DNA from: Okamejei kenojei
Lineage: Eukaryota
Direction of reading: 5' to 3'
DNA: 64,000 bases
NCBI GenBank assembly: GCA_035221665.1
Contig: CM069166.1
Coordinates: 3,968,001 to 4,032,000, forward strand
The position numbers and the translations under genes are program-made. This document shows positions 3,194 through 63,152 of the stretch, piece after piece (the stretch's first letter is position 1; each line of letters begins with the position of its first letter). The notes under the pieces were generated by a model that was not told the DNA's origin, ran no database searches, and saw nothing but the letters and a program-made list of their open reading frames with translations.

Positions 3194-3248
3194 GTAAGTA
3201 ACTTTACATTGGTGCCATTGAGTCTGCTCTGCCAGTCATTCATGAATG

Positions 3249-5560: not shown

Positions 5561-5698
5561 ATTAAAAGTAAATTATACCTGCAAATGAGTGCAGGCAAAA
5601 TTCATGGATTTTGAAAAGAAAGGACCTGTAGTTTTCAGTAGATATATTTGCTCGGTATGTATGATGATTGTGTAATGGTTTTTGTGATTTTTCCACAG

Positions 5699-40056: not shown

Positions 40057-40135
40057 ATGATCGCAGTCATGGTCTCTACACTCACTTCAAGCGGGAGATA
40101 CCTTCACCTCATCTTGTTCCTATTCACGTTAACAA
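40057..40135 (+). CDS. Probable exon 1 (signal peptide) of a second secreted or membrane gene, possibly an ICAM paralogue
   Basis: MIAVMVSTLTSSGRYLHLILFLFTLT (alternative ATG at 40069), with a basic residue then a hydrophobic core. Donor A|GTTAGT is phase 1; read-through meets a stop at once. Confidence 0.6.
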
Positions 40136-40199
40136 GTTAGTGCAATCCTCGTATCAATCGCGTTTCTCCCATGGCATGTCCCATTTTTATTTCAAAGCC

Positions 40200-42690
40200 A
40201 AACCGCTTGGAGGTAGTTTTAATCTGCAATTTGAGAAGGAGAACGTTAAATCGGAAGTGTCAGTGATGCAGTTTAACAAAGGGGACGATGAAGGCATGAG
40301 AGGGGAGCTGGCCTAAGTAGACTGGAAAGGTATCCTAGCAGGAATGACGGTGGAACAGCAATGGCAGGAATTTCTGGGCATAATCCGGAAGACGCAGGAT
40401 CATTTCATTCCAAAAAGGAAGAAAGATTCTAAGGGGAGTAGGAGGCAACCATGGCTGACAAGAGAAGTTGGGGATAGAATAAAACTAAAAGAAAAGATGT
40501 ATAACACAGCAAAGAGTAGCCGGAAACCAGAGGATTGGGAAACTTTCATAAGACAACAGAAGGAAACAAAATGGGCAATACGGGCTGAAAAGATGAATAC
40601 GAGGGGAAGCTGGCCAGGAATATAAAGGACAGTAAAAGCTTCTTTAGATATGTTAAGGGGAAAAGAGTAGCAAAGTCAAATGTGGGTCACTTGAAGGCAG
40701 ACACGGGTGAAATTATGTTAACGAAGAAACTGCAGATGCTGGAGAATTGAGGGTTACACAAAAAGCTGGAGAAACTCAGCGGGTGCAGCAGCATCTAAGG
40801 AGCGAAGGAGATAGGCGACGTTTCGGTCGAACACAGACCCTTCTTTCAGACTCTGGTCAGGGATCCAAGGAAACAGAGATATAGACGGTGATGTGGAGAG
40901 ATAAAGAACAATGAATGAAAGCAATATAGCAAAAAAGTATCGATGATAAAGGGAACAAGTCCATTGTAAGCTGTTTTTGTGGTGTGAAAATGAGAAGCTA
41001 GAGCGACTAGGGTGGGGGAGGGAGATAGAGATAGAGGGAATGCCAGGGCCCCATGGCTTGAGACACAGGTGGGAATGGGAGGAGACAGCCGGTTAACAGA
41101 ATTGCAAGAAAATATCAAATGTTTCAGCACAAAGGCACAGCAGACTCCCAAAGCGGAATAGGTTCCTCCAAATATGCGGTGTTGCTCAACTCTGGCCATG
41201 GAGGAACCCAGGACCGAGAGGTAGGATACCGGCATGGGAGGGGAGTTGAGGCTGAGGGACCGGGAGCGCGTCGGGTTGGTTTTTGCGGACCGAGAGGTGG
41301 GAACGTGTTACGGCGAAAACGATCGAGCCCTCCGCTTGTTCTCAAAACCGATATAATCATCTGGCATCTGAGCAGGGATGCAGTATAATGTAAGGTTGGA
41401 CGCACGGAGTCATAGAGCCAACCCTAAAATTAAGTTCACAGTAACATTCAACCCATTTATGTCGTCAAGCCAACAAATGGGGTTTAAATGCATTTCTCTT
41501 CTCCGTTAAAAACAATACACTCACTTCACATGCAGAGTTGTCCGTCCGGCGCTCAGCCCATCGCGCCGCCAAGCGGACATATGACTGGTGCAGATCAGCG
41601 GGCTGCCGCGCGGCGGGTGCGGCCACTGCGCACTTGCACGGTTGCCCCGGCGGGTCTGCCACCCATGCGCACTTGGTGCAAGACCAGACGGCTGCCGGCG
41701 GGCGGGTGCGGCACATGCGCAGGTGCAAGTTGCCGCGTTCGGGTCTGCACCTGCGACACTGGGCCAGGGTGGCGGGGGAGGCCCGGTGCGATGGACGGCA
41801 GCCGCGAGCGCGGATGCCTACGGCTGCTGGCACAGACACAATGCCGCTGATCGCCCAAAGCGGCAAGCCGCGCCCGCCCGGCCTCTGCGCGGCCAACCCC
41901 CCCCCCGAGCTGCCGGGCTGCGCAACCGGTGGCACACTGCGCGCCCAGGTTCACCCGGGAGGAACACCGAGCGCGCGGAGTTCCGTAACAGTTAGGTTTG
42001 AGACTGCCGAACACCGTAAAAAGGTTTTATTTCCGCCGGACAAAATAACGGGGGACAATAAATCATTAACATTCGGGACCACTTGAAGTGCAGGCTGACC
42101 TCTGCGAAGACCGGGAAGGACTTCTATGGGTCCCTGAAAGGAGTGGAGGGGGGGGTGACAAGGGACAAGGTGCGCAATTTATTGCGTGCAAGGGAAAGTG
42201 CGCCCGGGGAAGGAGTAGAGCGGAGGGGAGGGAAAGAATTGAGACAAGCGGAGCGTCACGGAGGGAGCGGAATTCTTTGCAGGAAGGCAGACGGGGGGAG
42301 ATGAGGAAGACAGGGGCGGTGGAGGGGTCAGGACGTTGGAGGTGGCGAAACTGGCGGAGGGACTATCAGTTGTATTTGTTTTCCGGCTGGTGCGGGGTGA
42401 AAGGTGAGGACCAGGGGACTCTGCCCTGTTTGCGAGCGAATAGGTGAATGGGGAGAGAGGGCAGTGTTTGCGGGGTATGGAGGAGACCCTGGTGCGAGCC
42501 TCATCAATAAGTCGGGGGGAGGGGAATCCCCACACTTTCTCTGAAGAATGAGGCCATTTGTTCTAGATGACCTGTGTGAAACCACCTCATCCTGGAGCGA
42601 TGCGGCGTAGACGGGTGAAATTATTATGGGCAACAAGGAAATGCAGAAGAGTTGAATAGGTTCTTCGGATCTGTCTTCACTAGGGCCGAA
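40200..42690 (+). mobile_element. CR1 ORF2 internal fragment interrupted by Penelope
   Basis: TVEQQWQEFLGII...QPWLTREV linker; continues (GEIIMGNKE..) after the Penelope insertion. Confidence 0.7.
40717..42610 (-). mobile_element. Penelope-like element (5'-truncated), duplication copy 1
   Basis: TSD ACGGGTGAAATTAT (40703-40716, 42611-42624); same as 53585-54662 but indel-rich and with an unexplained insert at ~41400-42080. Confidence 0.75.
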
Positions 42691-43339
42691 TGGCCTCCTC
42701 CTGCACCTATTTTCTATGTTTCAATGTTTCTATGAGCTATTAAGCGGAGCTCTATGATCAGCGGGGGGATTTCCTGTCATTTATTAATGTCCAAACAAAA
42801 AGTAGGAATGTTACAAAATTTTGAGATTTTAAAAATCAAGCATGTAATTTATCCCATCAGATAAAGCATAAAAAGAAGTTTAATTTGACACCTAATTCAC
42901 TTTCATATCTTCAATATTAAAAAAGATGGCCATTTTCATGCTCGGAAATTAGCATCTTGTTCCCTATTGGTTTTTCATTGACAACACAAAAGCTGTGATC
43001 GAGGACAGTCAGAAGCCCCATCAAAACTTTCTTAAACACACAATGAAGAGAACAGAATTAAAAATTTCATCATTATAGTATAGATTGAAGCATTCTGAAA
43101 CAAATATGAAACATCTTACTTGGATGACCTGAAATTAAAGCATATAATTAGTTAGTTACTTAATTGTAGCTAATTACAAAATTGACCATTGTGATGGAAA
43201 AAAGTAATAAACACCCATGACTGCCTTGAAAATCCCAAAATGTGATATTTTCAATAGATCAAACTTTAATATTATTAGTATTATATGCTGTAAAGTCCGT
43301 AAAAAGATAGTGTAAAAAAGCGAAATTACAATTTCTACT

Positions 43340-46300
43340 ACAATAGAACAAGTCTCGAGGTAGAGAAGATCCTCTACCCCACATCCCCCTCCCCTAGCGA
43401 AAGAGAAGGGAAGGGGAGAGAGGGGGGGAGGGGTGGCAAGAGGGGGAGAGGGCCCTTCCTCTCTGTCCCCGACTATCTTCCCCCCTTCCCTCTCTTACAC
43501 ACCTCTATTTCTGACCCGTATCCTCTCTTCATTCCCCCTCCCCCTCTGCCCCCTCCCTCTCTAGGCGAGGAAATCCCCACCCCACCTTCCCTCTCCTCCT
43601 CTTTCCCCCATCCTCTTTCCCCCATTCTTCTATCTCCCCCCCCATCTCTCCCCCTCCCTCATCCCCTGCCCTCCCACCCCTCCTAACCCTCCTCCGCATG
43701 CCATCCACCATAACAACCTCCACTCTCCCCCTCCCCCCCTCGCATCCCACTTTTCACATTCCGCCCCCTGTGTTTGGGGGGACGGACCCTCGGTCTAGTA
43801 ACATTATCTATCCTATCTATCTATTTTTAAAACTGTGCGTGTGTGTGTCATTATTTTCGCCTTTAAACGTATCTCTATTTTGCGAAAACCGGAGGCATTA
43901 ACGGGAAGATTTTTTAACGTATTTCTGTAGGGATTTACCTTAATGCAAGTCAGAAGCTTTTATCGCTGACGTCACAATGCCCCACAATGCGCCACACCAA
44001 TCGAGGCCCATCAGACTCCCGCCCCCCACCCCCCAACCCCCCACCCCCCGCTGTGGGCTAAAGCATTCTTTATTTCTTTTTTACATAGCATTAAATTTTT
44101 TTTGTGTCTCTGTGTCCCATCTCCGTGTCCCGCACCCCCCCCCCCCCCGCCCCCCCCCGGGGCCTGGCCTCTCCGATTAACAACATCACTGCTGTTTTGC
44201 ATGCGTGTATAAGAATCTCTTCCCCCGTCTTTAAAAAGCGTAGAAAGAACGAGCAGGTTCTTCAGATCCCGAGGACACCTGGTTATTTTGTGAAGTCACG
44301 CTCTTCCCGCAGCTGGACTCCCACGCCTGCTCGCCACTCCACCAAGAAAATCAGCCCCCCCCCCCCTCCGTTCTTCAAGATGTATTTATTTATATTTATT
44401 TGTCTATTGTTCCCGAAACCAGATAAAGACCATAAATAGGAACTAAAATGAATCAACAAACAAAATCGAAATAGTCAAACAATTGGACATTCCAGGGCAT
44501 ATCTTTGGTACAAAGCAAAGCACTGAAAGGTATAAAGATAAGAATTTTAAAATGAGCAACAGACTTTTTCTTTTACCAAGCTCGAAATGGAAAGAAATAA
44601 CATAACATGTGCACCTTCCACACCTTTACAATGGCTCATACTTAAAGGAGTTAATTAATAACAATATATTATTCACCTTTAGCAATAACATTGCTTAGCT
44701 ATAATCACCCAATAATGATACACATATTCAATACGTAATATAATGTAACACATAATAGACCATGACTCCACGGTTATACAAACATACATTGCGAAGCTGC
44801 CGTTTGAATATTCTATAATTTCAGAAGACGAACTTGCCAAGAATTGAGCAATATATCGCTCTACTTAACACCATACATTAATAACACTCTGCTTATTTGA
44901 AAACCAGTATTTAGTCACGTTACAACAAGAAAGGGGAATATAAGAGCAAACACAACACAATCCATATCACAGAACACAGTCTCTGCTGGCAGTAAAAACG
45001 AAGGAATACAATTTTGTGAAAGTCATACACTCAGATGTGTGATATGGGTAATAATATACAATAAATAATCTACAATAGCTAATTATTCATTTGAAATACA
45101 ATTTAACCGTAGCACGTAACCCACATACAACAATTTTTAGAGATGCATACAGACATATATCATCAATACATACAAACTGATAAACACATACAGTAAAATG
45201 TATGAAGTAACACAAAAAAAAACATATACAATAAATAATAAATAAATAAACATTAATAAACACTCTAGCGCCCCCTGTTTGTCAACCATCCCCATCATCC
45301 CTGTACCTTGTGAAAAAAAGTTTTTTGTATGTCATTTTGAACTGTTCATGTTTGGGACATTGCTTTAACTCCACATTCAAACTGTTCCACAATCCCACTC
45401 CACAGACCGAAATACAAAAAGTTTTTTTCTAGTCGTGCGGACTCTTTGTACCATTAAAATTAAATATTCGCTATCATTGAATAATTTTTGTATATTTCCA
45501 GGTAAGTTTTTATTTTTTGGCCCTAAACATTATCTGTCCGCCTGTTTTCAAATGCAACCAAATCTGCCTAATTTTAAAAATAATTTTGAGTTTGTAAGAA
45601 TAATGAATTAGTGTGATCCAGATACCTGATACAATGCGTATTGCTCTCTTTTTTGCAGAAATAGTTAATGAATCATAGCGAACTTTTATAGTTATTGCCC
45701 CAGACACATCTGCACACAGTAATTTAAGTAGGGTAAGATTAGTGCGAACAGTAGAGAATGCGACGAGTGATTTGTGATCCCAGAACCTGATTACAACTTT
45801 GTGTTAATAAACAGAAATGCTTTTTGACAATTTGGATTGTACTTATGTTTAATGTGTGATTTCCAGCTGATTTCTATCATCCATTATAACCCAAAGGAGA
45901 AATTTATGCTTTCATGAACTCTTTCAACTTCAACCCCATTTATCTTTATACCTTCGCTCACACGTGTATTTGTTCAGCAATTACCAAATAACATTATTTT
46001 GCGGTTTTGCTCAAGTTTAATGAAATTTTGTTCCTAGACAAACCACATGTTTTCAGTTTGCCCTGACATTCCTTTTGTTATTTTGTCCAGTCTCCGTTAG
46101 TTTTTAAAATTCTCCCCAGAACAAAAAATATGTTTGTGTCGCATCTGCGAACAAGACAATCCTCAAGGCATTGGAAAACACATTACAAATGTTCGATTTA
46201 ATATATACATGATGAATAGTTTTTTTGGACCCAACACTGAGACCCCTGGAGGGACACCACAAGCAATTGTCCCAAAATGTAAACTGAGCTGCCCAGCTTC

Positions 46301-49300
46301 ACAAACTGTTGCGTGTTACTTAAATAGCTTTTTATCCAATCCAGTACTAAGACCATCTGATGCCATACCTTTCTAATTTTTTAAAATTGCAGAAAAAACG
46401 AGCGTTCTGCAGATCGGGAGGTCACCGGTGGTCACAGTCAGTCACCTGAGGCCACCGACTTCTTTCTGAATCCTCTCCTTCTCCTCCACCCCCAATGGTA
46501 GAACATGGCGGCCGACAGCGGCCGTTAAGTCGCGCGGGAACACGCGATGAGAAGGTGGCCCTCGCGGCCATGACTCCCTCTGGGAAACCAGTCCCCGGCG
46601 CAGCGAGTCAAGTCACGCCCCTCCCTCCCTCGCGCTGCCAGTCGCGCGCCGCTCAATGCCTTTGATAAAAAACCTTGCGACCCCCCCCCACTCTCTCTCC
46701 CCTCTCATCTCTCCTCTCTCCTCCCTCGCCCCCCTCGCTCTCCCTCTCCCCCCCCCTCGCTCTCCCCTCTCTCCCCCTCGCTCTCTCTCTCCCCCCCTCG
46801 CTCTCTCTCTCCCCCTCGCTCTCTCTCTCCCCCACGCCCTCTCTCTCCCCTCTCTCCCCCCACCTCGCCCTCTCTCTCCCCCACCTCTCTCTCCCCTCCC
46901 CCCACTTTCTCTCACCTCCTCCCTCTCTCTCCCCCCCCTCTCTCCTCCCCTCTCCCCCTCTCCACCCCCCCCCAACCCCTCTCTCCCCCCCTCCCCCTCT
47001 CATCCACCCCACCCCCCCTCCCCCTCCTCATCCCCCCCCTCCTCCCCTCATCCCCCCCCCTCAAGTACCCCACCCCCCTCCCACCTCTCATCCCCCCTCC
47101 CCCTCTCATCCCCCCTCCCCCTCTCATCCCCCCTCCCCCCTCTCATCCCCCTTTCCCTTTTCCCCTCCTCTCATCCCCCCCCCCCCTCTCTCCCCACCCT
47201 TCCCCCTCACCCTCCCTATTCCCCCCTCTCCCAACATTCCCTCCCCCTCCCACTTCTCTCTCTGCCCTCACTCCTCTACCCCCCCCCCCCCCCCACCTCT
47301 CTAACGCGCCAGCGAGTTGGGGGCGTATGCGTCAGTAGATAGGACGGATTATGGGGTAAAAGGAGCAAATTAATAATTAATAATAAAATAACAAAGGGGG
47401 TAGTTAAAATGTGTGTGCGGGGGGCTAGTTAGTGTGAGTGTGTGTGTGGGTGGTTAATGTGTTTGACGCCGCATGCCCATGCCCCCCCCCACCCCCCCCC
47501 CCCCCCCCCGCAACCTAATGTTGGAGGAACAGAACCCAACGAGTCTGCACTTGGTCTTGTATATATTTAAAACTCTCGTGTTGGTTTTGTCCGGGTACTA
47601 TTCGCTAATATTCGTTTTAAGACGTTTGTGAAATCTCCTCCTCCAAAATGTGCAAAAATGGAATAACATATCCTTACCCTGCCTTTTCAGTAAAAAACAT
47701 TAAACATTTCAAAATGTTAAAAAAATCTAACTGCTTCTCACCCCATAGTACGTTGATGAACATTCCATCGTGTTAATGTTTTTTTCACAATGCCCAATGT
47801 TCACAGATGTCCAATCGGAATGGATCTCATTTACATATTCCTTTGCTCCAGCCGTAGCCCCGCCCCCCGCCGCCTGAAGTTTGCCAGCACATTCCATTGT
47901 GTGATGTCACAATTCCATCCCTCACAGATGGTCAATCGCAACGGATCTCATTTACATATGCCCCAGCTCCGCCCTCCCGCCGCCTGTGTCGAAGCGCGTG
48001 ATCACGTGATCAACATAACGGCCGTTGCGACTCTCTCCGCCCACAACCCGCCCCAAAACACAGGTTTTATAAGCTTGGTAAATTATCCCCTCTCTAAACC
48101 CCCTCTCATACTACTCTCCTCCTCCTGCTCTATCCCCCCCCCTCCTCTCTCCACCACCCCTTCTCTCCTCCCCCCCCCGCCCCCCTTCTCTTTACCCACC
48201 TCCCCCCATCCTCTCCTCTCACCGAGAACAGAAAATACCATGTTCAGGACAGAATAATATCGACAGAAAACAATATTTCTTCACCTTTCTTTGTTATTGG
48301 GGAACCTGAAGAAAGACAGATAGGGTCGGCCACATTGTCGATTACAGCAATTTATAGCAGAACAGTGAGCTGTAGATGTAGTGGACCCATGACGGTATCA
48401 AGGCAGTCCTTCAAAATGCGGAGAACAATCGACCCCCGCACGCGCGCGTTCTCATCCGCCGCCCGACTTGGCGGGAAGAGGCAGCGCGGGGTAAACCGGC
48501 GGCAGCCAATGGGATGCATGGGGGTGGGGGGGAAGGTGACAGCACGCGAGGCCCCGCCTCCCCAAGCATGCGCTCTGGCGGCAGCTGTCGTCGCTCCCCC
48601 GCATGCCTCCAGCTTTCGACGCAGGTTAACCTCCTGCCTACCCAACTCTCCAGCTGTTAACATCCCACCTCCTCCCCCGCCGTAGACGTCCGTTAAACTC
48701 CCACCGACCCAACAATCAACGCTCGTACGCTCACGGCCTTCAGCTGTTGACACTCACTTCCCGCCCAACCACCCCGCCTTCACCCTCTCAAATGTCAGCG
48801 CACCATCAATCGCCGTACCGCCACCCATCCCCAGCTGTGTCTGGCCCGTTAACCGCACAGTCGTCGAACTTTTTGCCGACCCTTCTCGCCCGTACACTCA
48901 ATCAATTGTTTCAATGCCCATAAACCGCCCGATCCCCCCCACCCCCCCCCTTACTGTCGACGCTTGGAGGCCGTCCAACTGTTTGACTCCTCGCTCATTC
49001 ACGGTACCCCCAATAGTTGACTATCGCTCCTGGGTGGCCCGAAACCAACTGTCAACACCCGTTCCCACCCAAAACACCCCTCTCCCTCTTCTCCCCTCTC
49101 ACCTCTCCTCCCTCTCTCCGTCCGCCCTCTCTCTTCTCTCCCCCCTCCCCCCCCCCCCTCTTCTCCCCCCCTTTCCCCCCCCTCTCCCTCTCACCTTTCA
49201 ATCCTCTTTCCTCCTCCCCTCCTCCCCACCCCGTCTCTCCCTCTCCTCCCTCTCTCCGGCCCACCCCTCTCTCCCCCCCCTCCTCTCCCTCTCACCCTTT

Positions 49301-52012
49301 CTCATCCCCTCTCCCCACCCCACCCGTCTCCCCTCCCCCTCCCCGTGTGTGTGGGGGTGGTTAGGGTGTGAGGCCGAATGCCGCCCCCACGCCCCTCAAC
49401 TGTGCATTGGGGGAACCCGTTTATTTCCCCCCCCCCCCCAGCTGTTAATTCCCGCTTAATCCGCAGCTGTTGACCCCATTAAGTCCAGCTGTTGACGCTA
49501 AGCCACATCTGCAGCCGATCCGCTCTCCCGCAACATGAGCATCCTCAGGCTCCACACCCCGGTGTGTCGACATTATATAACCTTGTGGCTATAAACAGTC
49601 CATGTATATATAACAAACACCCTTTAATTATTCCCTGTAGAAATACCAGAATGTTCCATTTTATAATTCTTTTCTCAATGCACCTGTTAACCTTATTGCT
49701 AAGTTCAAGTGTATTGTTTATAGACAATAGGTGCAGGAGTAGGCCATTCAGCACTTTGAGCCAGCATCGCCATTCAATGTGATTCATGCTGATCATCATA
49801 CCAATCCTCTATATTTATAAAATTTCTGATCTTGGGTTATGTGTGTATTTATGCAATGTTTCGTGTGCGTATTCCCCGTTTGTTACATCCTGTATTTTTT
49901 CCAGGTACTAATTTCTTTACTCTTTAAATTTACCGAATCAATTAAAATCTCTATCTTTCCTGAAAGCCTACTGTTTCCATCTACAAGTACAGAGGAAACT
50001 ACAACAGCTTCAGCACCACCACATCAGTTTCCCAACATCAACGACAGTAAAACAACTAATGGCAGCAAAAGTGCATCTACACAACAGAAGCTACAAACCA
50101 CCTTCAGTGAGGACCACTATGCACCACTTACAAACACCTACACTGGTGAGTCCGGTATGCAAGAGTAATGCAAAATCAAATTATATTCCTTACACATCCA
50201 GTGAGAATAATGTTAAAATGGATTGGTCATGTGTGTTCCATGCATATACTGTTGGCCTATCTTCTGTCAAAAAAACTACAGGTTTTTGTTTTCCAAACTC
50301 TTTGGTCCCTCTCTAGCCACTCCCTTGCAGTTGAAGCTATGCGTGAGTGGATATGGGACGGGGATGGGTAAAAGGAGCGAATGAATAACATTAAATATAA
50401 TATCAAGGGGGGTGGTTAGTGTGCGTGTGAAACCGCAGCACCCCCTCCCCCAAATGCACGTAGGGGAAACAGACCCAACGGGTCAGCACTTGGTCTAGTA
50501 AATATTTAATATTTAATAAACTCTCGTGTTGGATTGTCCGGGTTCTATTTCGCGAATATTCGTTTCAGGCGTTTGTGAATCACCTCCTCCGAAATTTGCA
50601 AAAACTGGACAATTTTTACATATTCCCGGGGGGTTTTTCCACCTCCACTTAATGTTTGAAAATTATTCATCCTTTCCCTGCTTTTTCGGTAAAAAATTTC
50701 AAAATGTTAAAAAAAAATCAAACTGCTTCTCAACCATAGAACGTTGATGAACGTTCCATCGTGTGATATCACAATGCCCAATGCTCACAGATGTCCAATC
50801 GGAATGGATCTCATTTACATATGCCTATGCTCCAGCCCCAGCCACGCCCCCCCCCCCGATGTTGCAGCACGTACCCAACCAATCATTGTGTGATGTCACA
50901 ATGCCATCCCTCACAGATGGGCAATCGCAATGGATCTCATTTACATAAGCCTTTGCTCGAGCCTCAGCCCCGCCCCCCGCCGCCTGTGTCGAAGCGCGTG
51001 ATCACGTGATCAACGTAATAACGGCACGTTGAGATTCCTCACCGCCCACAACCCGCCCCAAAACATAGGTTTTTTAAACATATAAGTATCCCCTCTCTAC
51101 ACCCACCCTATCTACTCAATCCTCCTACTCTACCCCCTCTCTTCTCTCCAACCCCACTTCTCTCCCCCCCGCTCTCGCTCTCTCAACCCTCTCTCTCCCT
51201 CTCCCTCTCTGCCCTCCTCTCACCCTCTCCCCTCTCCGTCTCCCCCTCGCCCCTTTCCCCACGTGTGTGTGGGGGTGGTTAGTGTGCGTGTGACGCCGAA
51301 TGCCGCCCCCCCCCGCAACCGCGCATTGAGGGAATCCGTTATTTCCAGCTGTTGATGCCCGCTATTTTCCAGCTTATTGATGCCCGCTATTTCCCCAGCT
51401 GTTGATGCCCGTTATTCCAGCTGGTTGATGCCAGTTTCACCCGCCCCCAACCATCCAATGTGATCATGGCTGATCATCCCCATTCAGTACCAATCTCTAT
51501 ACTTATAAAACTCTTGGATGTGTGTGTATTTGTGCAATGTTTTCGTGTGCGTTTTTTCCCTGTTTGTTACTTACCTCCCGTTTTTTTTTTCTGGTACTAA
51601 ATTTCTTACAATTTTAAAAGTTTGGAGTCATTTAATCTTTAAATTTACCTGAATCAAAAATCTCTACCTTTCCAGAAACCACTATTCCATCTAACAGGTT
51701 CAGAGTAGGCAACTACAACAGCTTCAAGCACCACATCGGTTCCCCATACAACGACAAAAATAGAAACAACTAAGGGCAGCAACAACAGAAGCTACCACCA
51801 CCTCACGATCACACCACTTACACCCACTGGTGAGTCCGGTATGCAAGTGTAATGCAAAATAAAATATATTCCTTATAAATACAGTGAATAAGAATCATTA
51901 CAGTAGAAACAAGTTAACATGGATTGGCCATGTGTGTTTTCCATGGCATATACTGTTGGCCTATCTTCTGTCAAACACACCACAGACTTTGTTTCCAAAT
52001 TCTTTGGTCCCC
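43340..52012 (+). mobile_element. Non-autonomous Helitron tandem array, copy 1 (error-rich)
   Basis: 3' ends at ~43798 (CTAG), ~47559 (CTTG) and ~50498 (hairpin plus CTAG); same layout as copy 2. Confidence 0.6.
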
Positions 52013-52747
52013 CTTGGTAGAGCTAATAGGACTTGTTGTTTCAATCTCTGTAATAAGTCGGCACTCTGTGCTATATTGCAGTGGGATTGGAGTGGTTGAA
52101 AGGTAGGGTAGGTACGTCATCGGGGTCCATCAGGTTGGGCACTCTCTCCTTCTTTGAGGTTTCACTGATAAGCCCACAACATCTCCAGAGGGCTCAACGG
52201 TGATACCTGTGTCCCAGTTACACCCCCCTCAATTCCATTCATACCCTCCTGTATTCAATCTTGCAGCCCCAATTGTTGTTTGCTTCTCCTTTTGATCCAG
52301 ATCCAATTGCTGTTTTTTCCTCCTTCCCGCAGAATTTGATAATGATTTGATTGCTTGTTGCACCCCCATTTTCTTTCATAGCCCGGTACATAGATGTAAA
52401 CAACAAATCCACCCCTGCATGCCCCACTTCAACAGGGAAAAGCTTGGTCTTCCAGCCATTCAGGGAACCTTTCAGTTACCAGTTCAGAGTACTCATTTGT
52501 TTTTTATTTTCCTCTCATAAGCTTTTTTCAACACCATCTTCCCATGGAACTGTCAATTCCACAACATATTCCAACTTGGCTGTTGTGGCCCCACAGACCA
52601 ATGTCTGGCCGGAGTGTTGTAACCACAATGTCTGGGGGAAACACAAGCCTTTTTTCTAAGTAACTGCAGATCTGGAGAATCGAGTTACACAAAAAGCTGG
52701 AGAAACTCAGCGGTGCAGTCCCAGCAGGCTAAGAGCGAAGGATAACG

Positions 52748-53584
52748 CATACCTGCCAACTTGTGAGATTGAAAAATGCGGAATCCTATAGTCTGACGTC
52801 AGTGAGGGCGGGCACGTGACGTCAGTAAGGGGCGGGGCAGGTGTCAGTAAGGGGCGGGTACGTGACGTCATGAGGGCGGGAAAGAGACCTCAGGGGGGTT
52901 ACACAAAATGCTGGAGAAAACTCAGCGGGTGCAGTACAATGTCGGTGATCTCAGTCTGAAGAAGGGTCTCACCCAAAACGTCGCCTATCTCCGCTCCTTA
53001 GATGCTGCTGCACCCGCTGATTTCTCCAGCATTTTGCGTAACCCTCGATTCTCCAGCATCTGCAGTTTTCTTCGTCATACTCTCAGGTTTGTGAGTGTTG
53101 GTGAGGCGGGAACGGGCTGGCCCCGAACCCGACCTGAAACAGCGCTTCTGCGGTCAACTCACCGGCTGACAGCCCGGCGGCGGCGGCATGCGGCGCTGAG
53201 GTGAGGTACCGAGAGTGTAATGCCCGTCTGGGCCGGACCGACCATCTCTCCCTGCCCCCTCATCGCCTCTTCCCTGCCCCTGAAGTGGATAATGAACGTA
53301 TTTGCTTACTACCCCACGGGATGATCGTTGATTTCCCCCTCTCCACCCTCCTCCCCGGTGCCCAGACTCGCACCTATTCTTTCTCCCCTGCGCTTCAGAG
53401 TCTAGAGCTCCAGCCGTTCCATCCAATTCCGATTTTTTTGTCTCATATTTCCAAGAAAAAAAATCGGAAAAAAAACACTAGAAAGTTTCTGTGTTTTATT
53501 TTCCCCTCGGAATATTGAGACAAAAAATCTGGAATTCGGAATTGGGATGGAAAAATCGGAAGAATTCCGAATCGGGGAGGTATG
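52748..53584. mobile_element. Short-TIR (CATACCT..) DNA element carrying a CRE/GC-box array
   Basis: Starts CATACCTGCC and ends GGGGAGGTATG. 23-bp repeat x4 with TGACGTCA at 52794, 52817 and 52863 plus GGGCGG boxes. Present only in copy 2. Confidence 0.5.
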
Positions 53585-54662
53585 TAGACGGTGATGTAGG
53601 AGAGATAAAGAACAACGAGATATAGACGGTGATGTGGAGAGATAAAGAACAATGAATGAAAGATATGCAAAAAAGTATCGAGTGATAAAGGGAACAAGCC
53701 ATTGTAAGCTGTTTGTGGTGTGAAAATGAGAAGCTAGTGCGACTAGGGTGGGGGAGGGAGTTAGAGATAGAGGGAATGCCAGGGCCCGAGGGCTGAGGGA
53801 GAAGTGGGGACGGGAGGAGACAGCAGGGGTTAACAGAATTGAGAAAATTCAATGTTTCAAGCCCAAAGGATGCAGACTCCCCAAGCGGAATATGAGGTGC
53901 TGTTCCTCCAACTTGCGGTGTTTGCTCACTCTGGCCATGGAGGAGGGCCCCCAGGACCGAGAGGTCGGATACGGAATGTGGGGAGGGGGATTGAAGTGCT
54001 GAAGCGACCGGGAGGTCGGGTTGGAGTTTTTTGCGGACCGAGCGGCAAAGGTGTTCGGCTAAACGATCGCCAAGCCTCCGCTTGGTCTCACCGCCCCACC
54101 CCCCCCCTCAACGTTATAGATCATCTGGCATCTGGAGCAGCGGATGCAGTAGAGGAGGTTGGAGGAGGTGCAGGTGAACCCTCTGTCGGACCTGGAAGGA
54201 CTGCTTTGGGTCCCTGAAAGGATGGAGGGGGAGGTGAAGGGACAATTGGTTGCATTTCTTGCGGTTGCAAGGGAAAGTGCCCGGGAAGGAGTAGAGGCGG
54301 AGGGGAGGGAAGAATTGACAATGGAGTCACTGGAGGGAGCGTCCTTTGCGGAAGGCAGAGACGGGGGAGAATGGGAAAGATGAGGGTGGCGGTGAGAGGG
54401 GTCCACGTTGGAGGTGGCGAAACTGGCGGAGGACTATCTGTTGTATTTGCCGGCTGGTGGGGTGAAAGGTGAGGACCAGGGGGACTCTGCCCTGTTTGCG
54501 AGTGGGGGAATGGGGAGAGAGGGCAGTGTTGCGGGGTATGGAGGAGACCCTGGTGCGAGCCTCATCAATAGTGGGGGAGGGGAATCCCCATTCTCTGAAG
54601 AATGAGGCCATTTGTGATGACCTGGTGTGAAACACCTCATCCTGGGAGCAGATGCGGCGTAG
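53585..54662 (-). mobile_element. Penelope-like element fragment (RT C-terminus, linker, GIY-YIG), copy 2
   Basis: FHTRSSQMASFFREWGFP...RVPLVLTFHP...FRHLQR and FTCTSSNLLYCIRCSRCQMIY motifs. Confidence 0.85.
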
Positions 54663-56282
54663 ACGGGTGAAATTATTATGGGCAACAAGGAAATGCAGAA
54701 GAGTTGAATAGGTTCTTCGGATCTGTCTTCACTAGGGCCGAATGGCCTCCTCCTGCACCTATTTTCTATGTTTCAATGTTTCTATGAGCTATTAAGCGGA
54801 GCTCTATGATCAGCGGGGGGATTTCCTGTCATTTATTAATGTCCAAACAAAAAGTAGGAATGTTACAAAATTTTGAGATTTTAAAAATCAAGCATGTAAT
54901 TTATCCCATCAGATAAAGCATAAAAAGAAGTTTAATTTGACACCTAATTCACTTTCATATCTTCAATATTAAAAAAGATGGCCATTTTCATTCTGCCATT
55001 TTCATGCTCGGAAATTAGCATCTTGTTCCCTATTGGTTTTTCATTGACAACACAAAAGCTGTGATCGAGGACAGTCAGAAGCCCATAACTTTCTTAAAAA
55101 TGAAGAGAACTGAATTAAAATTTCATTTATTATAGATTGAAGCATTCTGAAACAAATATGAAACATCTTACTTGGATGACCTGAAATTAAAGCATATAAT
55201 TAGTTAGTTACTTAATTGTAGCTAATTACAAAATTGACCATTGTGATGGAAATAGTAATAAACACCCAGACTGCCTTGAAAATCCCAAAATGTGATATTT
55301 TCAAGATCAGAACTTTAATATTATTGTATTATATGCTGTAAGTCCGTAAAAAGATAGGTAAAGAAATTACAATTTCTAACAATAGAACAAGTCTCAAGGT
55401 AGAGAAGATCCTCTACCCCCTCCCCTAGGCGAAAGAGAAGGGAAGGGGAGAGAGGGAGAGGGGTGGAGGGGGAGAGGGCCCTTCCTCTCTGTCCCCGACT
55501 ATCTTCCCCCTTCCCTCTTACCACCTCTATTTCTGCCCCGTTCCTCTCTTCCCCCTCCCCCTCTGCCCCCTCCCTCTCTAGGAAATCCCTCACTTCCCTC
55601 TCCCCCTTCTTTCCCCCATCCTCTTTCTCCCCCCCCTCTCTCTCCCCCTGCCCTCCCACCCCTCTCTCCCTCCGCATCCACCATACCTCCACTCTCTCCC
55701 CCCCCTCTCATCCCACTTCACATTCCCCCCCTGTGTTTGGGGGGACGGGACCCTCGGTCTAGTAACTTATCTATCTATTTTTAAAACTGTGCGTGTGTGT
55801 GTCATTTTGCCTTTGAAACGTATCTCTTCGAAAACCAGAGGCATAAACGGGAAGATTTTTACATATTTCTGTAGGGATTTACCTTATGAGTCAGAAGCTG
55901 CTGCTGACGTCACAATGCCCACATGCCCACCAATCGAGGCCCATCTGCCTCCTGCCCCCCCTCCCCCCCCCCCCCCCCGCTGTGGGCTAAAGCATTCTTT
56001 ATTTCTTTTTTACATAGCATTGAAATTTTTTGTGTCTCTGTGTCCCTCTCCGTGTCCCGCACCCCCCCCCCCCCCCCCCGGGGCCTGGCTCTCGATTAAA
56101 CATCTGCTGTTTTGCATGCGTTAAGTCTCTTCCCCCGTTCTTTAAAAAGCGTAGAAAGAACGAGCAGGTTCTTCAGATCCCGAGGACACCTGGTTTATTT
56201 TGTGAAGTCACGCTTCCCGCAGCTGGACTCCCACGCCTGCCCGCCCACTCCAGCCCCCCCCCCCCCACCGTTCTTCAAGATG

Positions 56283-57843
56283 TATTTATTTATTTATTTG
56301 TTTATTTGTTCCGAACCAGTAAAGACCTAAATAGGAATAAATAACAACAACAAAATCGAAATAGTCAAACAATTGGACATTCCAGGCAATATTTGCAAAG
56401 CAATGAAAGGTATAAAGAAAATTTTAAATGTGCAACACTTTTTCTTTACAAGCTCGAAAAGGAGTGAGAAGAATAACATTTAATCTCACCCCTTCTCCCT
56501 AAACCTTGCTTCCATATTTAATAATTAATTAATAACAATAATTATCACCATTATTAATAACATTGCTTATAATCATAATAACAATAATGATAACATATCA
56601 ATAGTAATATAATATGTAACACAATATACAATATATAATCTACAATAGCTAATTATTCATTTGAAATACAATTTAACCGTAGACGTACCCCAGACAATTT
56701 TTAGAGATGCATACAGACATATATATACATACAACTGATAAACACATACAAGTAATATGTATGAAGTAACCAAAAAACATAAATAAATAATAAATAAATA
56801 AACATTAATAAACATTAACCCCTGTTTGTCAACCATCCCCTTCATCCCTGTACCTTGTGAAAAAAAGTTTTTTGTATGTCATTTTGAACTGGTTCATGTT
56901 TGGACATTGCTTTAACTCCACATTCAAACTGTTCCACAATCCCACTCCACAGACCGAAATACAAAAAGTTTTTCTAGTCGTGCGGACTCTTTGTACCTTA
57001 AAATTAAATATTCGCTCATTGAATAATTTTTGTATATTTCCAGGTAAGTTTTTATTTTTGGCCCTAAACATTATCTGTGCTGTTTTAAATGCAACCAAAT
57101 CTGCTAATTTTAATAATTTTGATTGTAAGAATAATGAATTAGTGTGATCCAGATACCTGATAATGCGTATTGCTCTTTTTTGCAGAATAGTTAATGAATA
57201 TAGCGAACTTTTATAGTTATTGCCCCAGACTTCTGCACAGTAATTTAAGTAGGGTAAGATTAGTGAACAGTAGAGAATGCGGAGTGATTTGTGATCCAGA
57301 ACCTGCTTAACTTTGTGTAATACAGAAATGCTTTTTGACAATTTGGATTGTACATGTTTAATGTGTGATTTCCAGCTGATTCTATCATCCATTATAACCC
57401 CAAGAAATTTATTTTCATGAACTCGTTCAACTTCAACCCCATTTATCTTTATATTCGCTTGTGTATTTGTTCTGCAATTACCAAATAACATTATTTTGGT
57501 TTTGCTCAAGTTTTAATGATATTTTGTCCTGTCAAAACCATGTTTTCAGTTTTGCCCATTTCTTTTGTTATTTTGTCCAGTAGTTGTTTTAAATTCTCCC
57601 CAGAACAAAAAATATTTGTGGTGTCTGCGAACAAGACCAGCCTCAAGGCATTGGACACATTACAAATGTCGTTTATATACATGATGAATAGTTTTGGACC
57701 CAACACTGACCCCTGGGGGACACCACAAGCAATGTCCAAAAATGTAGAACTGTAGCTGCCCAGCTTCACAAACTGTTGCGTGTTACTTAAATAGCTTTTT
57801 ATCCAATCCAGTACTAGACCTCTGATGCCATACCTTTCTAATT
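56283..57843 (-). mobile_element. Crack/L2-group LINE, 5'-truncated (copy 1 at ~44383-46378)
   Basis: CGVPQGSVLGPKLFIMYINDI, LFADT, KFLGVIMD, LILPYLNYCAEVWG and LQKRAIRII; 3'UTR stem-loop and (AAAT)n tail. Confidence 0.8.
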
Positions 57844-57921
57844 TTTTAAAATGCGCAGAAAAAACGAGCGTTCTGCAGATCGGGAGGTCACCGGTGGTCA
57901 CAGCAGGTCACAGCCAGTCAC

Positions 57922-57980
57922 CTGAGGCCACCGACTTGTTTCTGAATCCTCTCCTTCTCCTCCACCCGATGGTAGAACAT
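57922..57980 (-). pseudogene. Helitron-embedded first-exon-like fragment with a strong Kozak context
   Basis: Minus strand: GCCGCC-ATG MFYHRVEEKERIQKQVGGL, then AG|GTGACT, in CpG-rich DNA; donor gene not recognised. Confidence 0.4.
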
Positions 57981-58151
57981 GGCGGCGACAGCGGCCGTTA
58001 TAGTCGCGCGGGACACGCGATGAGAAGGTGGCCCTCGCGGCCATGACTCCCTCTGGGAAACCAGTCCCCGGCGCAGCGAGTCAAGTCACGCCCCTCCCTC
58101 CGTCCCTCGCGCTGCCAGTCGCGCCGCTCAAGGCCTTTGATAAAAACCTTG

Positions 58152-58295
58152 NNNNNNNNNNNNNNNNNNNNNNNNNNNNNNNNNNNNNNNNNNNNNNNNN
58201 NNNNNNNNNNNNNNNNNNNNNNNNNNNNNNNNNNNNNNNNNNNNNNNNNNNNNNNNNNNNNNNNNNNNNNNNNNNNNNNNNNNNNNNNNNNNNNN
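58152..58295. other. Assembly gap (144 N)
   Basis: Run of N inside a CT-rich low-complexity tract. Confidence 1.
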
Positions 58296-58828
58296 CCTCC
58301 CTCTCTCAGCTCCCTCGCCCTCCTCTCACCCCACCCTCTCGTCATCACCCCTCCCTCTCTCATCCACCCCCCTCCCTCTCTCATCACCCCCTCTCTCCTC
58401 CCACCCTCTCTTCATCACCCCCTCCCTCTCTCACGTCACCCCCTCCCTCTCACCCCCCCCTCTCATCACCCTCTCTCTCATCACCCCCTCTCTCACCCTC
58501 CCCCTCTCATCACCCCCTCCCCCTCTCATCACCCTCCTCCCCCCTCTCATCCCCCCTCCGTCTCTCTCCCCCCCTTTCCCCTTCCCTCTCCCCATTCCCT
58601 CCCTCCCCCTCCCACCCCCACTTCTCTCTCTGCCCTCACTCTCTACCCCCCCCCCCACCTCTCTAGACGCGCCTGCGAGTTGGGGGCTATGCGTCAGTAG
58701 ATAGGACGGTTATGGGGTAAAAGGAGCAAATTAATATTAATAAAATAACAAAGGGGGTAGTTAATGTGTGTGCGGGGGGCTAGTTAGTGTGTGTGTGTGT
58801 GTGGGTGGTTAATGTGTTTGACGCCGCA

Positions 58829-58863
<35 letters not shown>

Positions 58864-59640
58864 CAACCGTATGTTGGAGGAACAGACCCAACGAGTCTGC
58901 ACTTGGTCTTGTATATATTTAAAACTCTCGTGTTGGTTTGTCCGGGTACTATTTCGCTAATATTCGTTTAAGACGTTTGTGAATCTCCTCCTCCAAAATG
59001 TGCAAAAATGGAATAACATATCCTTTCCCTGCTTTTTCAGTAAAAAACATTAAACATTTCAAAATGTTAAAAAAATCTAACTGCTTCTCACCCATAGAAC
59101 GTTGATGAACATTCCATCGTGTAATGTCACAATGCCCAATGCTCACAGATGTCCAATCGGAATGGATCTCATTTACATATTCCTTTGCTCCAGCCGTAGC
59201 CCCGCCCCCCGCCGCCTGAAGTTGCAGCACATTCCATTGTGTGATGTCACAATTCCATCCCTCACAGATGGTCAATCGCAACGGATCTCATTTACATATG
59301 CCCCAGCCCCGCCCTCCCGCCGCCTGTGTCGAAGCGCGTGATCACGTGATCAACATAACGGCCGTTGCGACTCTCTCCGCCCACAACCCGCCCCAAAACA
59401 CAGGTTTTATAAGCGTGTAAGTATCCCCTCTCTACCCCCTCTCCCTCCTCCTCCTGCTCATCGCCCTCCCCCCCTCCTCTCCTCCACCACCCCCCCCCCT
59501 CGCCCCCCCCTCCTCCCCCACCCCCCTCTTTACCCACCTCCCCCCCCGTCCTCTGCCCCCCCCCCCCCATCCTCTCCGTGAAACAGAAAATACCGATGTT
59601 CAGGACAGAATAATATCGACAGAAAACAATATTTCTTCAC

Positions 59641-59747
59641 CTTTTCTTTGTTATTGGGGAACCTGAAGAAAGACAGATAGGGTCGTCCACATTGTCGATT
59701 ACAGCAATTTATAGCAGAACAGTGAGCTGTAGATGTAGTGGACCCAT
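59641..59747 (-). pseudogene. Helitron-embedded THAP-domain exon 1 fragment (copy 1 at 48285-48390)
   Basis: STTSTAHCSAINCCNRQCGRPYLSFFRFPNNKE(K/R) then donor GTGAAG: the THAP CxxxxC...FFRFP signature. The ATG at 59747 is out of frame by 1 nt. Confidence 0.75.
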
Positions 59748-61232
59748 GACGGTATCAAGGCAGTCCTTCAAAATGCGGAGAACAATCGACCCCCGCACGC
59801 GCGCGTTCTCAATCGCCGCCCGCCCGACTTGGCGGGAAGAGGCAGCGCTGGGGTAAAACCGGCGGCAGCCATGGGATGTCATGGGGGGGGGGGGGGGGAA
59901 GGTGACAGCACGCGAGGCCCCGCCTCCCTAAGCATGCGCTCTGGCGGCAGCTGTCGTCGCTCCCCCGCATGCCTCCAGCTTTCGACGCAGGTTAACCTCC
60001 TGCCTACCCAACTCTCCAGCTGTTAACATCCCACCTCCTCCCCCGCCGTAGACGTCCGTTAAACTCCCACCGACCCAACAATCAACGCTCGTACGCTCAC
60101 GGCCTTCAGCTGTTGACACTCCCGCCCACCCGCCTTCACCCTCTCAAATGTCAGCGCCCATCAATCGCCCGTACCGCCACCCATCCCCAGCTGTGTCTGC
60201 CCGTTAACCGCACAGTCGAACTTTTGCCGACCCTTCTCGCCCGTACACTCAATCAATTGTTCAATGCCCATAAACCGCCCGATCCCCCCCCCCCCCACTG
60301 TCGACGCTTGGCCGTCCAACTGTTGACCCTCGCTCATTCACGTACCCCAATAGTTGACTATCGCTCCTGGGTGGCCCGACCAACTGTCAACACTCGTTCC
60401 CACCCAAAACACCCCTCTCCCTCTTCTCCCCTCTCCCTCTCCTCCCTCTCTCCGCCCCTCTCTCTCCCCCCCTCTCTTTTCTCCCCCCCTTTCCCCCTCC
60501 TCTACCTCTCACCTTTCTCTCCCCTCTCCCCACCCCGTCTCTCCCTCTCCTCCCTCTCTCCGGCCCTCCCTCTCTCCCCCCTCCTCTCCCTCTCACCCTT
60601 CTCTCCCCTCTCCCCACCCCGTCTCCCCCTCTCCCCGTGTGTGTGGGGGGTGGTTAGTGGGTGTGAGGCCGAATGCCGCCCCCACCCCCGCAACTGTGCA
60701 TTGGGGGAACCCGTTATTTCCAGCTGTTAATTCCCGCTAATCCAGCTGTTGACCCCATTATGTCCAGCTGTTGACGCTAGCCACATCTGCAGCCGATCCG
60801 CTCTCCCGCAACATGAGCATCCTCAGGCTCCACACGCCGGTGTGTCGACATTATATAACCTTGTGGCTATAAACACGTCATGTATATATAACAAACACCT
60901 TTAATTATTTCCCTGTATGAAATACCAGATGTTCCATTTTATAATTCTATTCTCAATGCACCTGTTAACCTTATTGCTAAGTTCAAGTGTATTGTTTATA
61001 GACAATAGGTGCAGGAGTAGGCCATTCAGCACTTTGAGCCAGCATCGCCATTCAATGTGATCATGGCTGATCATCAGTACCAATCTCTATATTTATAAAA
61101 TTCTGATCTTGGATATGTGTGTATTTATGCAATGTTCGTGTGCGTTTCCCCGTTTGTTACTTCCTGTATTTTTCCGGTACTAATTTCTTTACTCTTTAAA
61201 TTTACCTGAATCAAAAATCTCTATCTTTCCAG

Positions 61233-61391
61233 AAACCACTGTTCCATCTACAAGTACAGAGGAAACTACAACAGCTTCAAGCACCACATCAGTTCCCACA
61301 TCAACGACAGTAGAAACAACTAAGGGCAGCAAAAGTGCATCTACAACAGAAGCTACAACCACCTTCAGGACCACACCACTTACACCCACTG
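61233..61391 (+). CDS. Ser/Thr-rich mucin-type exon (phase 1-1, 159 nt) inside a Helitron
   Basis: Acceptor CTATCTTTCCAG and donor G|GTGAGT; TTVPSTSTEETTTASSTTSVPTSTTVETTKGSKSASTTEATTTFRTTPLTPT with no stops. Garbled copy at ~49963-50145. Confidence 0.6.
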
Positions 61392-62829
61392 GTGAGTCCG
61401 GTATGCAAGAGTAATGCAAAATAAATATGTTCCTTACACATCCAGTGAATAATGTTAAAATGGATTGGTCATGTGTGTTCCATGGCATATACTGTTGGCC
61501 TATCTTCTGTCAAAAAAACTACAGGTTTTGTTTCCAAACTCTTTGGTCCCTCTCTAGCCACTCCTGCGCGTTGGAGGCTATGCGTGAGTGGATAGGGCGG
61601 GGGATGGGGTAAAAGGAGCGAATGAATAACATAAATATAATATCAAGGGGGGTGGTAGGGGAAACAGACCCAACGGGTCAGCACTTGGTCTAGTAAATAT
61701 TTAATATTTAATAAACTCTCGTGTTGGATTGTCCGGGTTCTATTTCGCGAATATTCGTTTCAGGCGTTTGTGAATCACCTCCTCCGAAATTTGCAAAAAC
61801 TGGACAATTTTTACATATTCCCGGGGGGTTTTTCCACCTCCACTTAATGTTTGAAAATTATTCATCCTTTCCCTGCTTTTTCGGTAAAAAATTTCAAAAT
61901 GTTAAAAAAAAATCAAACTGCTTCTCAACCATAGAACGTTGATGAACGTTCCATCGTGTGATATCACAATGCCCAATGCTCACAGATGTCCAATCGGAAT
62001 GGATCTCATTTACATATGCCTATGCTCCAGCCCCTGCCACGCCCCCCGATGTTGCAGCACGTTCCATTGTGTGATGTCACAATGCCATCCCTCACAGATG
62101 GGCAATCGCAATGGATCTCATTTACATAAGCCTTTGCTCGAGCCTCAGCCCCGCCCCCGCCGCCTGTGTCGAAGCGCGTGATCACGTGATCAACATAACG
62201 GCCGTTGAGATTCTCACCGCCCACAACCCGCCCCAAAACACAGGTTTTTTAAACATATAAGTATCCCCTCTCTACACCCACCCTATCTACTCAATCCTCC
62301 TACTCTACCCCCTCTCTTCTCTCCAACCCCACTTCTCTCTCCCCCCCTCTCGCTCTCTCAACCCTCTCTCTCCCTCTCCCTCTCTGCCCTCCTCTCACCC
62401 TCTCCCCTCTCCGTCTCCCCCTCGCCCCTTTCCCCACGTGTGTGTGGGGGTGGTTAGTGTGCGTGTGACGCCGAATGCCGCCCCCCCCCGCAACCGCGCA
62501 TTGAGGGAACCCGTTATTTCCAGCTGTTGATGCCCGCTATTCCAGCTGTTGATGCCCGCTATTCCAGCTGTTGATTCCCGTTATTCCAGCTGTTGATGCC
62601 CGTTCACTGCCCCAACCATCCAATGTGATCATGGCTGATCATCCCCATTCAGTACCAATCTCTATACTTATAAAACTCTTGGATGTGTGTGTATTTGTGC
62701 AATGTTCGTGTGCGTTTCCCTGTTTGTTACTTCCCGTTTTTTTTCTGGTACTAATTTCTTTACAATTTTAAAAGTTTGGAGTCATTTAATCTTTAAATTT
62801 ACCTGAATCAAAAATCTCTACCTTTCCAG

Positions 62830-62976
62830 AAACCACTATTCCATCTACAGGTTCAGAGGCAACTACAACAGCTTCAAGCACCACATCGGTTCCCATATCA
62901 ACGACAATAGAAACAACTAAGGGCAGCACAACAGAAGCTACCACCACCTTCACGATCACACCACTTACACCCACTG
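62830..62976 (+). CDS. Second Ser/Thr-rich mucin-type exon (phase 1-1, 147 nt) inside a Helitron
   Basis: Acceptor CTACCTTTCCAG and donor G|GTGAGT; TTIPSTGSEATTTASSTTSVPISTTIETTKGSTTEATTTFTITPLTPT, differing from the first by an in-frame 12-nt indel plus substitutions. Frameshifted copy at 51676-51829. Confidence 0.6.
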
Positions 62977-63152
62977 GTGAGTCCGGTATGCAAGTGTAAT
63001 GCAAAATAAATATATTCCTTATATACAGTGAATAAGAATCATTACAGTAGAACAAGTTAACATGGATTGGCCATGTGTGTTCCATGGCATATACTGTTGG
63101 CCTATCTTCTGTCAAACACACCACAGACTTTGTTTCCAAATTCTTTGGTCCC

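Follow-up and report, generated by a model that had tools for sequence, protein, structure and literature searches.

We analyzed a 64,000-nucleotide stretch of the genome of the skate Okamejei kenojei (assembly GCA_035221665.1, contig CM069166.1, positions 3,968,001 to 4,032,000 of the forward strand), referred to here as the window, in which the leader exon of an ICAM/VCAM-like gene is followed by two exons rich in serine and threonine. Both Ser/Thr exons are intact and in frame, and they belong to a mucin-exon family that is repeated and spliced. We consider the chance about even that they are also the first units of a mucin array with one exon per repeat, spliced between the leader and the immunoglobulin (Ig) domains of a skate ICAM/VCAM-like paralog.

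Ser/Thr exon 1 (61233..61391, plus strand) has 159 nucleotides and 53 codons, and Ser/Thr exon 2 (62830..62976, plus strand) has 147 nucleotides and 49 codons; both are phase 1-1. Each exon is bounded by the acceptor TTTCCAG/ and the donor CTG/GTGAGT (the slash marks the splice site), has a length that is a multiple of 3, and contains no stop codon in the frame of the leader. Visual inspection was used to assess splice strength and signal-peptide cleavage. The two exons differ from each other by 10 substitutions and one 12-nucleotide indel. The original prediction had described a phase-1 leader donor and two stop-free, phase 1-1 Ser/Thr exons on the same strand with an in-frame indel, and its coordinates proved exact.

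Ser and Thr make up 32 of the 52 residues of exon 1 and 28 of the 48 residues of exon 2, and Cys is absent from both. With Pro included, the counts are 36/52 and 32/48, which identifies both peptides as Pro/Thr/Ser (PTS)-rich repeats, and there is one exon for each PTS repeat. When positions 40136-64000 were scanned for acceptor- and donor-bounded, symmetric, stop-free segments, 6 were found. Three of the 6 (exon 1, exon 2, and a shorter form of exon 2) had a Ser-plus-Thr fraction of at least 0.5, whereas 60 block shuffles produced none.

The coding part of the leader (signal peptide) exon lies at 40057..40135 (plus strand, 79 nucleotides) and ends in the phase-1 donor A/GTTAGT, which is not a strong consensus. 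The conserved start is probably at 40069: the homologs begin at this second ATG rather than at 40057, and it also has the better Kozak context, a customary guide to the choice of start codon. From 40069 the leader is identical at 20 of 22 residues to six skate ICAM/VCAM-like proteins, including those of Leucoraja erinacea and A. radiata, and by this likeness a tandem ICAM/VCAM-like paralog starts at the leader exon. A Pfam search of the leader and of exon 1 gave no match. A tblastn search of 40135-64000, from the leader to the window end, with 4 homologs detected no Ig exon; the ICAM-type Ig domains, transmembrane segment, and tail of this gene would be encoded past 64000. The lack of an Ig exon between the leader and the Ser/Thr exons counts in favor of a mucin array spliced between the leader and the Ig domains.

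We then screened 34 elasmobranch sequences of the family, which came from 11 named species and from a further 6 Logan-derived proteins. Ig domain 1 begins no more than 52 residues from the N terminus in 23 of the 34, and 9 had no domain-1 start motif. The remaining two carry a long Ser/Thr/Pro region before domain 1, and both are isoforms of the L. erinacea gene LOC129714544. In the other ten species, the leader was joined straight to Ig domain 1 or no mucin was shown, and the mucin module was not seen in rays or sharks in this screen. Presence or absence of the exons in orthologues had been proposed as a check, and it placed the repeats in LOC129714544 only. The addition of mucin exons in a phase-1 intron between the leader and Ig domain 1, also proposed earlier, was thus borne out as lineage-specific, with a single L. 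erinacea gene accounting for both sequences.

The two L. erinacea models, XP_055520209.1 (annotated as 'zonadhesin-like') and XP_055520210.1 ('uncharacterized'), have 3 and 2 repeats, respectively, directly before Ig domain 1. The repeats, each of 61 amino acids, barely differ from one another, and the first two are fully identical. They share 75-77% identity over 52 amino acids with exon 1 and 67-69% identity with exon 2; when the 24 bases upstream of exon 1 are included, identity is 70% over 61 amino acids. The 24 bases upstream of each acceptor (61200-61232 and 62797-62829) encode a peptide homologous to residues 1-8 of the L. erinacea repeat, and the window has TG where the longer, L. erinacea-type exon would require AG. 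The comparison indicates an acceptor shift between the skate genera. The residue at the junction into domain 1 is A in the mucin-bearing L. erinacea models and T in the forms that join the leader to domain 1, as expected if the mucin exon, which ends in G, supplies the first base in place of the leader, which ends in A. After the Ser/Thr repeats, the LOC129714544 product has ICAM-like Ig domains, a transmembrane (TM) segment, and a tail. P0016, which has the mucin before domain 1, gave a weak Pfam match to ICAM_N (E=0.004) and no SEA match; in P0007 and P0016 the mucin precedes domain 1, which is the same order as in the window.

Neither XP_055520209.1 nor XP_055520210.1 was named in the literature searched. 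The exon 1 peptide gave 0 matches among 802 candidates in a protein collection where composition filters hide even the 75%-identical repeats that are present, and an Atlas search with the repeats alone returned no usable match. In the same set of homologs, the gene models P0008 (A. radiata) and P0004 (M. birostris) contain internally repeated blocks of four Ig domains, which could reflect a genuine multiplication of domains or a fusion of tandem paralogs.

To see how the exons are represented in public data, contigs of 4 of 24 listed runs (X2, X6, X19, and X20) were compared with positions 60650-63450 at 80% likeness. X2 and X6 are DNA runs. X19 and X20 are RNA-like, come from one study, and are labelled 'RNA? 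(probably DNA)'; none of the 24 runs is recorded as RNA. Summed contig depth is not a copy number and is a poor measure of expression. In X19, the depth of the four exon bins was 196,127, 96,597, 20,457, and 97,939, while that of the four adjacent intron bins was 19-39. The corresponding depths in X20 were 14,951, 10,308, 0, and 8,282 for exon bins and 0.2-14 for intron bins. X19 also contained the joints 61390>62829 (GT..AG), 61390>61232, and 62975>61232, which occurred in neither DNA run, and the loose end listed before 61232 in X19 is the end of another mucin exon. From the exon and intron depths and the exon-exon joints, we read X19 as RNA. The 53-codon acceptor of the window exons is also that of the family expressed in the organism designated A. 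Between X19 and X20, two samples of one study, the family depth differed about tenfold.

The DNA runs point to a large family. In X2, the exon depth was 24,925-26,352 and that of the downstream intron 8,463; in X6, these values were 4,706-8,578 and 1,493. One X2 contig on the family intron alone had a depth of 1,612. On the other hand, the upstream bin 61120-61213 reached only 422 and 492 in the DNA runs, and contigs matching the locus itself reached 14-28. This suggests that the mucin unit is repeated many times, roughly hundreds, an estimate from DNA contig depth rather than a count of copies. Seven X2 contigs depart from the window sequence at 62790 into another upstream flank. An X6 joint returns from 63155 to 61195, which indicates that the family is tandem in DNA. 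X6, from a second organism, also has contigs that span 62486-62644, 62689-62849, and 63083-63241 with 6, 16, and 3 other letters; the local arrangement, including the retrotransposon junction, is therefore common to that organism.

Taken with the L. erinacea repeats, these results indicate that the mucin module is a skate gain in the intron between the leader and domain 1, common to two genera, and that the gain is older than first supposed. The description of exon shuffling as being in progress was not sustained, since another genus already has homologous repeats ahead of Ig domain 1 and the second organism has three of the local junctions. As to the splice junction 61391-62830, which had been put forward as a test, exon-exon splicing was seen in X19 for the family, but it could not be assigned to this locus.

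Several observations weigh against the window exons being part of a mucin array spliced to Ig domains. At 61323, 61332, and 61357, practically the entire depth of the RNA-like contigs consists of letters other than those of exon 1, so that the exon-exon junctions are attributable to the family but not to the window locus. However, contigs drop rare variants, and the DNA run X2 also has no window letters at 61323 and 61332; the missing letters in the RNA contigs are thus uninformative. X20 shows none of the three exon-exon joints, and no leader-mucin or mucin-Ig junction was present among the joints listed, the leader lying outside the compared stretch. The depth of the family, which suggests hundreds of copies, is possibly too great for one gene. 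The codon changes between exons 1 and 2 are 8 non-synonymous and 2 synonymous, and purifying selection is unsupported. Among the homologs, mucin was present in 0 of 4 A. radiata proteins and in 0 of 1 Rhinoraja protein, and the L. erinacea models are automatic RefSeq predictions that have no leader. In both units, similarity to the family intron breaks off at almost the same position (61551 and 63153-63155, within 2-4 bases), although different elements follow, an agreement that the array reading leaves as a coincidence. Finally, the domain-1 exon encodes the residues that precede the start of domain 1 in homologs without mucin, and the mucin form would thus require a new signal-peptidase site.

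The mechanism that we propose starts from the phases. As the leader donor and the domain-1 acceptor are both phase 1, any symmetric phase-1 exon would fit between them and could multiply without a frameshift. Such an exon may have entered the leader intron before the split from Leucoraja and may then have been amplified by tandem duplication into an array that was homogenized within each lineage. Because the window and organism A share the 53-codon acceptor while the L. erinacea repeats are 61 amino acids long and nearly identical to each other, one Ig-linked array homogenized per lineage is the simplest reading. The window would be the diverged 5' edge of the array, into which pieces of Helitrons, short interspersed nuclear elements (SINEs), and long interspersed nuclear elements (LINEs) were inserted, and one unit, together with the Helitron sequences flanking it, would have been duplicated (about 7.5% divergence). 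This local duplication may have been driven by a Helitron, although the origin of the exon can be explained without one. The encoded type-I membrane protein would carry a distal mucin, predicted to be O-glycosylated, above 3-4 ICAM-like domains. It could act as a glycocalyx spacer, a lubricant, or a selectin-type ligand above the ICAM-like domains, and its length might be varied by splicing. We also entertain, as a rather improbable possibility, a giant skate membrane mucin composed of a leader, hundreds of intron-separated exons of 53-61 codons (>10,000 residues), and ICAM-like Ig domains; in it, the array would have been seeded by a Helitron that carried one phase-1 exon into the leader intron and whose termini would still enclose unit 1, and splicing would tune the length.

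An alternative, which we regard as doubtful, is an old Helitron capture. A non-autonomous Helitron would have taken the 360-bp unit from a separate mucin gene with one exon per repeat (for example, a skate Muc13-like gene) and landed in intron 1, where the unit would have been exonized and duplicated locally; the event would be ancient and fixed. Exon 1 does lie inside a 610-bp segment (61084-61693) that runs from A/TC through about 110 nucleotides of 5'-like sequence, 360 nucleotides of mucin family, and a 145-nucleotide fragment to CTAG/T. On the plus strand, a truncated piece that we take to be a SINE (60998..61082; very high depth in all four runs) precedes a Helitron-like 5' end with A/TC (61084..61192), which is moderately repeated and supplies the putative branch point. 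Mucin-family unit 1 (61193..61551, plus strand) follows with about 40 nucleotides of upstream intron, the exon, and 160 nucleotides of downstream intron. It is succeeded by a Helitron-like 3' fragment (61549..61693, plus strand), in which a hairpin at 61667-61679 (5-bp stem, -3.9 kcal/mol) stands 10 nucleotides upstream of CTAG. The 3' ending CTRR and then T is thus present for unit 1 (CTAG at 61690-61693, T at 61694), and the 5' TC is preceded by A at 61083/61084 and at 62658/62659. These ends and the hairpin match the Helraiser hallmarks given in the available part of PMC4778049, and the family likeness begins and stops sharply at the Helitron-like parts.

Upstream of unit 1 are another Helitron-like 3' end with an imperfect hairpin and CTTG/T (58656..58912, plus strand; 84% identical to 61547-61693) and a non-autonomous Helitron-like element, element C (58913..60774, plus strand; 91-93% identical to 61694-62574). 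The subterminal part of element C ends before the hairpin and passes into CCAGCTG repeats. Its hairpin is lost, as in read-through capture, and compound capture between two Helitrons is described for bats in the available part of PMC4224331. A duplicate of element C, the CCAGCTG repeats, the SINE piece, and the 5'-like end occupies 61694..62789 (plus strand, TC at 62659). Compared part by part, units 1 and 2 and the Helitron-like element, SINE piece, and 5'-like end preceding each of them show 91-93% identity. The 3' fragments are only 84% identical, with 23 mismatches in 142 positions versus 81 in 1,085 for the rest of the duplicated unit (16% versus 7.5%; Fisher p=0.001). By this difference we rejected the notion that tandem duplication alone accounts for the 3' end downstream of exon 1. 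The excess divergence indicates that the presence of a Helitron 3' end past the exon does not depend on the duplication, and this favors some role of a Helitron.

Capture is opposed by the following results. There was no empty site: the SINE of the left flank, cut at 61082/62656, does not resume past 61693 on the right, where the 5' part of another Helitron-like element starts. No Helitron 3' end was found after exon 2 up to the window end; the downstream intron of unit 2 (62977..63155, plus strand) is followed instead by a high-copy fragment of a retrotransposon without long terminal repeats. A RepHel open reading frame, which a non-autonomous copy does not require, was not detected, the longest frames in 40136-64000 having at most 263 amino acids, and Pfam gave no match for 7 of the 8 frames of at least 200 amino acids in that interval (all but 53496-54107). 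The window-type junction does not appear amplified, since the 5'-like bin has a depth of 422-492 in DNA compared with 4,706-26,352 for exon 1, and window-specific letters have a depth of 24-73. This suggests, from contig depth and not from copy number, that there are few window-type copies and that the upstream flank of most exon copies is a different one. The joint 61691>63073, present in both DNA runs, puts a Helitron 3' end at a different position of the family intron, and Helitron insertions into family introns therefore recur. For capture to hold, L. erinacea would also have had to undergo the acceptor shift and a new triplication. Of the proposal that the exons are Helitron-borne, the position of exon 1 between A/TC and the hairpin with CTAG/T stood, but the missing empty site, the missing 3' end of exon 2, and the other flanks of most copies did not fit it. 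The Helitron is a putative vehicle.

It is also unlikely, in our judgment, that both exons are silent passengers, that is, stranded copies of the unit in intron 1 that are skipped while an ordinary leader-Ig protein is made. Forms with the leader joined to domain 1 do occur in skates, including three Logan-derived proteins (P0006, P0015, and P0018), but these proteins match the mucin-less sister gene. The 8:2 ratio of codon changes looks neutral; however, despite 7% divergence, none of the four splice sites has been lost and both frames remain open, whereas neighboring non-coding indels are of 1, 5, and 26 nucleotides, a weak argument with roughly a 1 in 10 probability of arising by chance. 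No RNA contig was seen with the letters specific to exon 1, a result made uninformative by the like absence of letters 61323 and 61332 from X2 DNA. The L. erinacea models, moreover, splice homologous repeats to Ig domain 1. Highly improbable is an assembly join, in which the leader and the mucin exons would come from different genes or haplotypes merged across the gap and noisy fill at 40.7-58.3 kb: the interval does hold an 11.9-kb noisy duplication and a 144-base gap (58152-58295), but the noisy copy is continuous from 40724 (600 bp past the leader) through both exons, so that a long read or read consensus links them, and the L. erinacea models independently tie the repeats to the same gene family.

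The duplication at 40724..52657 (plus strand, 11.9 kb) appears to be a noisy long-read copy of 52658-63760 and is likely a false duplication. Over 49500-52661, the first copy had 59 extra-base events versus 7 in the second, and 58 transversions versus 36 transitions (p=2e-11). Several alignment blocks of 600 columns had only 2-5 substitutions but 6-17 insertions. This insertion bias fits raw PacBio error and an overfilled gap; the available part of PMC3504050 describes such error as 'skewed toward insertions' and reports overfilled gaps. Frameshifted copies of both exons, absent from the original prediction, lie in the duplicate near 49943-50146 and 51677-51830. That the four exon copies in the window reflect Helitron amplification was ruled out, as two of them sit in the noisy duplicate. 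With the duplicate removed, the distance from the leader to exon 1 is 9,163 bp rather than the 21,097 bp of the assembly; the 12-kb noisy duplicate thus doubles both exon count and intron length. The second copy alone has a segment of about 870 bp (~52750-53610) whose ends are similar and inverted and which includes 22-bp repeats containing TGACGTCA; it is perhaps a miniature inverted-repeat transposable element that differs between haplotypes.

The window also contains the 3' half of an upstream tandem ICAM/VCAM-like paralog (1..5973, plus strand), with Ig exons at ~1-250 and 2909-3193 and the TM segment and tail at ~5699-5973. It scored 30.7 bits against Pfam PF21146 (cut-off 27.5), and its last Ig exon is 62-77% identical to skate and ray proteins. 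A 44-bp minisatellite of 8.4 copies (6806-7172) lies 0.8 kb past the stop codon of this gene. A nearly complete LINE occupies 30179-34156 on the plus strand with long frames of 341, 358, 321, and 331 amino acids, the first open reading frame being presumably esterase-like. Three Helitron-like 3' ends (55748-55790, 58885-58930, and 61667-61720) are each followed directly by the 5'-like end of another element in a head-to-tail chain. A reverse-transcriptase fragment (PF00078; 56829-57907, minus strand) is enclosed by a Helitron-like 5' end (~55770) and the 3' end at 58912. The retrotransposon fragment at the window end (63156..64000, minus strand), which we assume to be HERO-like, was recognized by contig depth and by a translation with restriction-like endonuclease motifs, and it had no Pfam match. 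Positions 63156-63230 were rejected as native intron since they belong to this high-depth repeat.

If the mucin array is indeed spliced between the leader and the Ig domains, it would provide a datable vertebrate case in which an adhesion receptor turned into a mucin by gaining a whole symmetric exon, while the sister paralogs and outgroup species retain the ancestral leader-to-Ig state and the domain order is opposite to that of MAdCAM-1. The route of exon gain, by Helitron capture or by local duplication, would thereby become testable. It would also serve as a warning that mucin arrays of this kind collapse or get misnamed in current skate annotations. A literature search whose coverage excluded most subscription papers found no mucin-bearing ICAM/VCAM and no Helitron capture in skates, and the available parts of PMC10707392, PMC4948705, and PMC10450919 contain nothing on this gene.

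The closest likeness in gene structure is to chicken Muc13, which, in the available part of PMC1552070, has a signal sequence, a PTS domain in which each repeat has its own, near-identical exon, membrane-proximal domains, and a TM segment, and for which length variation by splicing was proposed. In the skate, too, the signal sequence would be followed by PTS repeats that each have an exon of their own. However, Muc13 has SEA and EGF domains, whereas the skate model has ICAM-like Ig domains with no SEA match in P0016, and Muc13 is an old mucin, whereas the skate case would be a lineage-specific gain on an adhesion molecule. Chicken MUC2 also has a multi-exon PTS region, according to the available part of PMC3549977. 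In the mucinization described for mammals (available part of PMC9417175), non-mucin precursors, which are proline-rich secreted proteins, gain exonic PTS repeats. The skate case shares the gain of PTS repeats by a non-mucin precursor in one lineage, but the gain would consist of whole intron-bounded exons on an Ig adhesion receptor instead of exonic repeats.

The comparison with Helraiser and with Helitron capture in bats, as far as the available parts of PMC4778049 and PMC4224331 describe them, extends to TC and CTAG ends at an AT site, a subterminal hairpin, a lost upstream terminator, and a host exon with intron flanks between the ends. The window differs in having no empty site and, by contig depth, no sign of dispersed, amplified two-ended copies, and its hairpin is weaker, with 13 nucleotides versus 19 in Helraiser. 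MAdCAM-1, for which the available part of PMC12649877 gives two distal Ig domains and a proximal mucin, resembles the skate model in combining Ig domains of the ICAM/VCAM family and a mucin region in one type-I membrane protein. The earlier idea of a MAdCAM-1-like stalk of about 100 amino acids nevertheless has the domain order reversed: the skate mucin is N-terminal and would, above domain 1, form the distal tip rather than a membrane-proximal stalk, with a length that may far exceed 100 amino acids.

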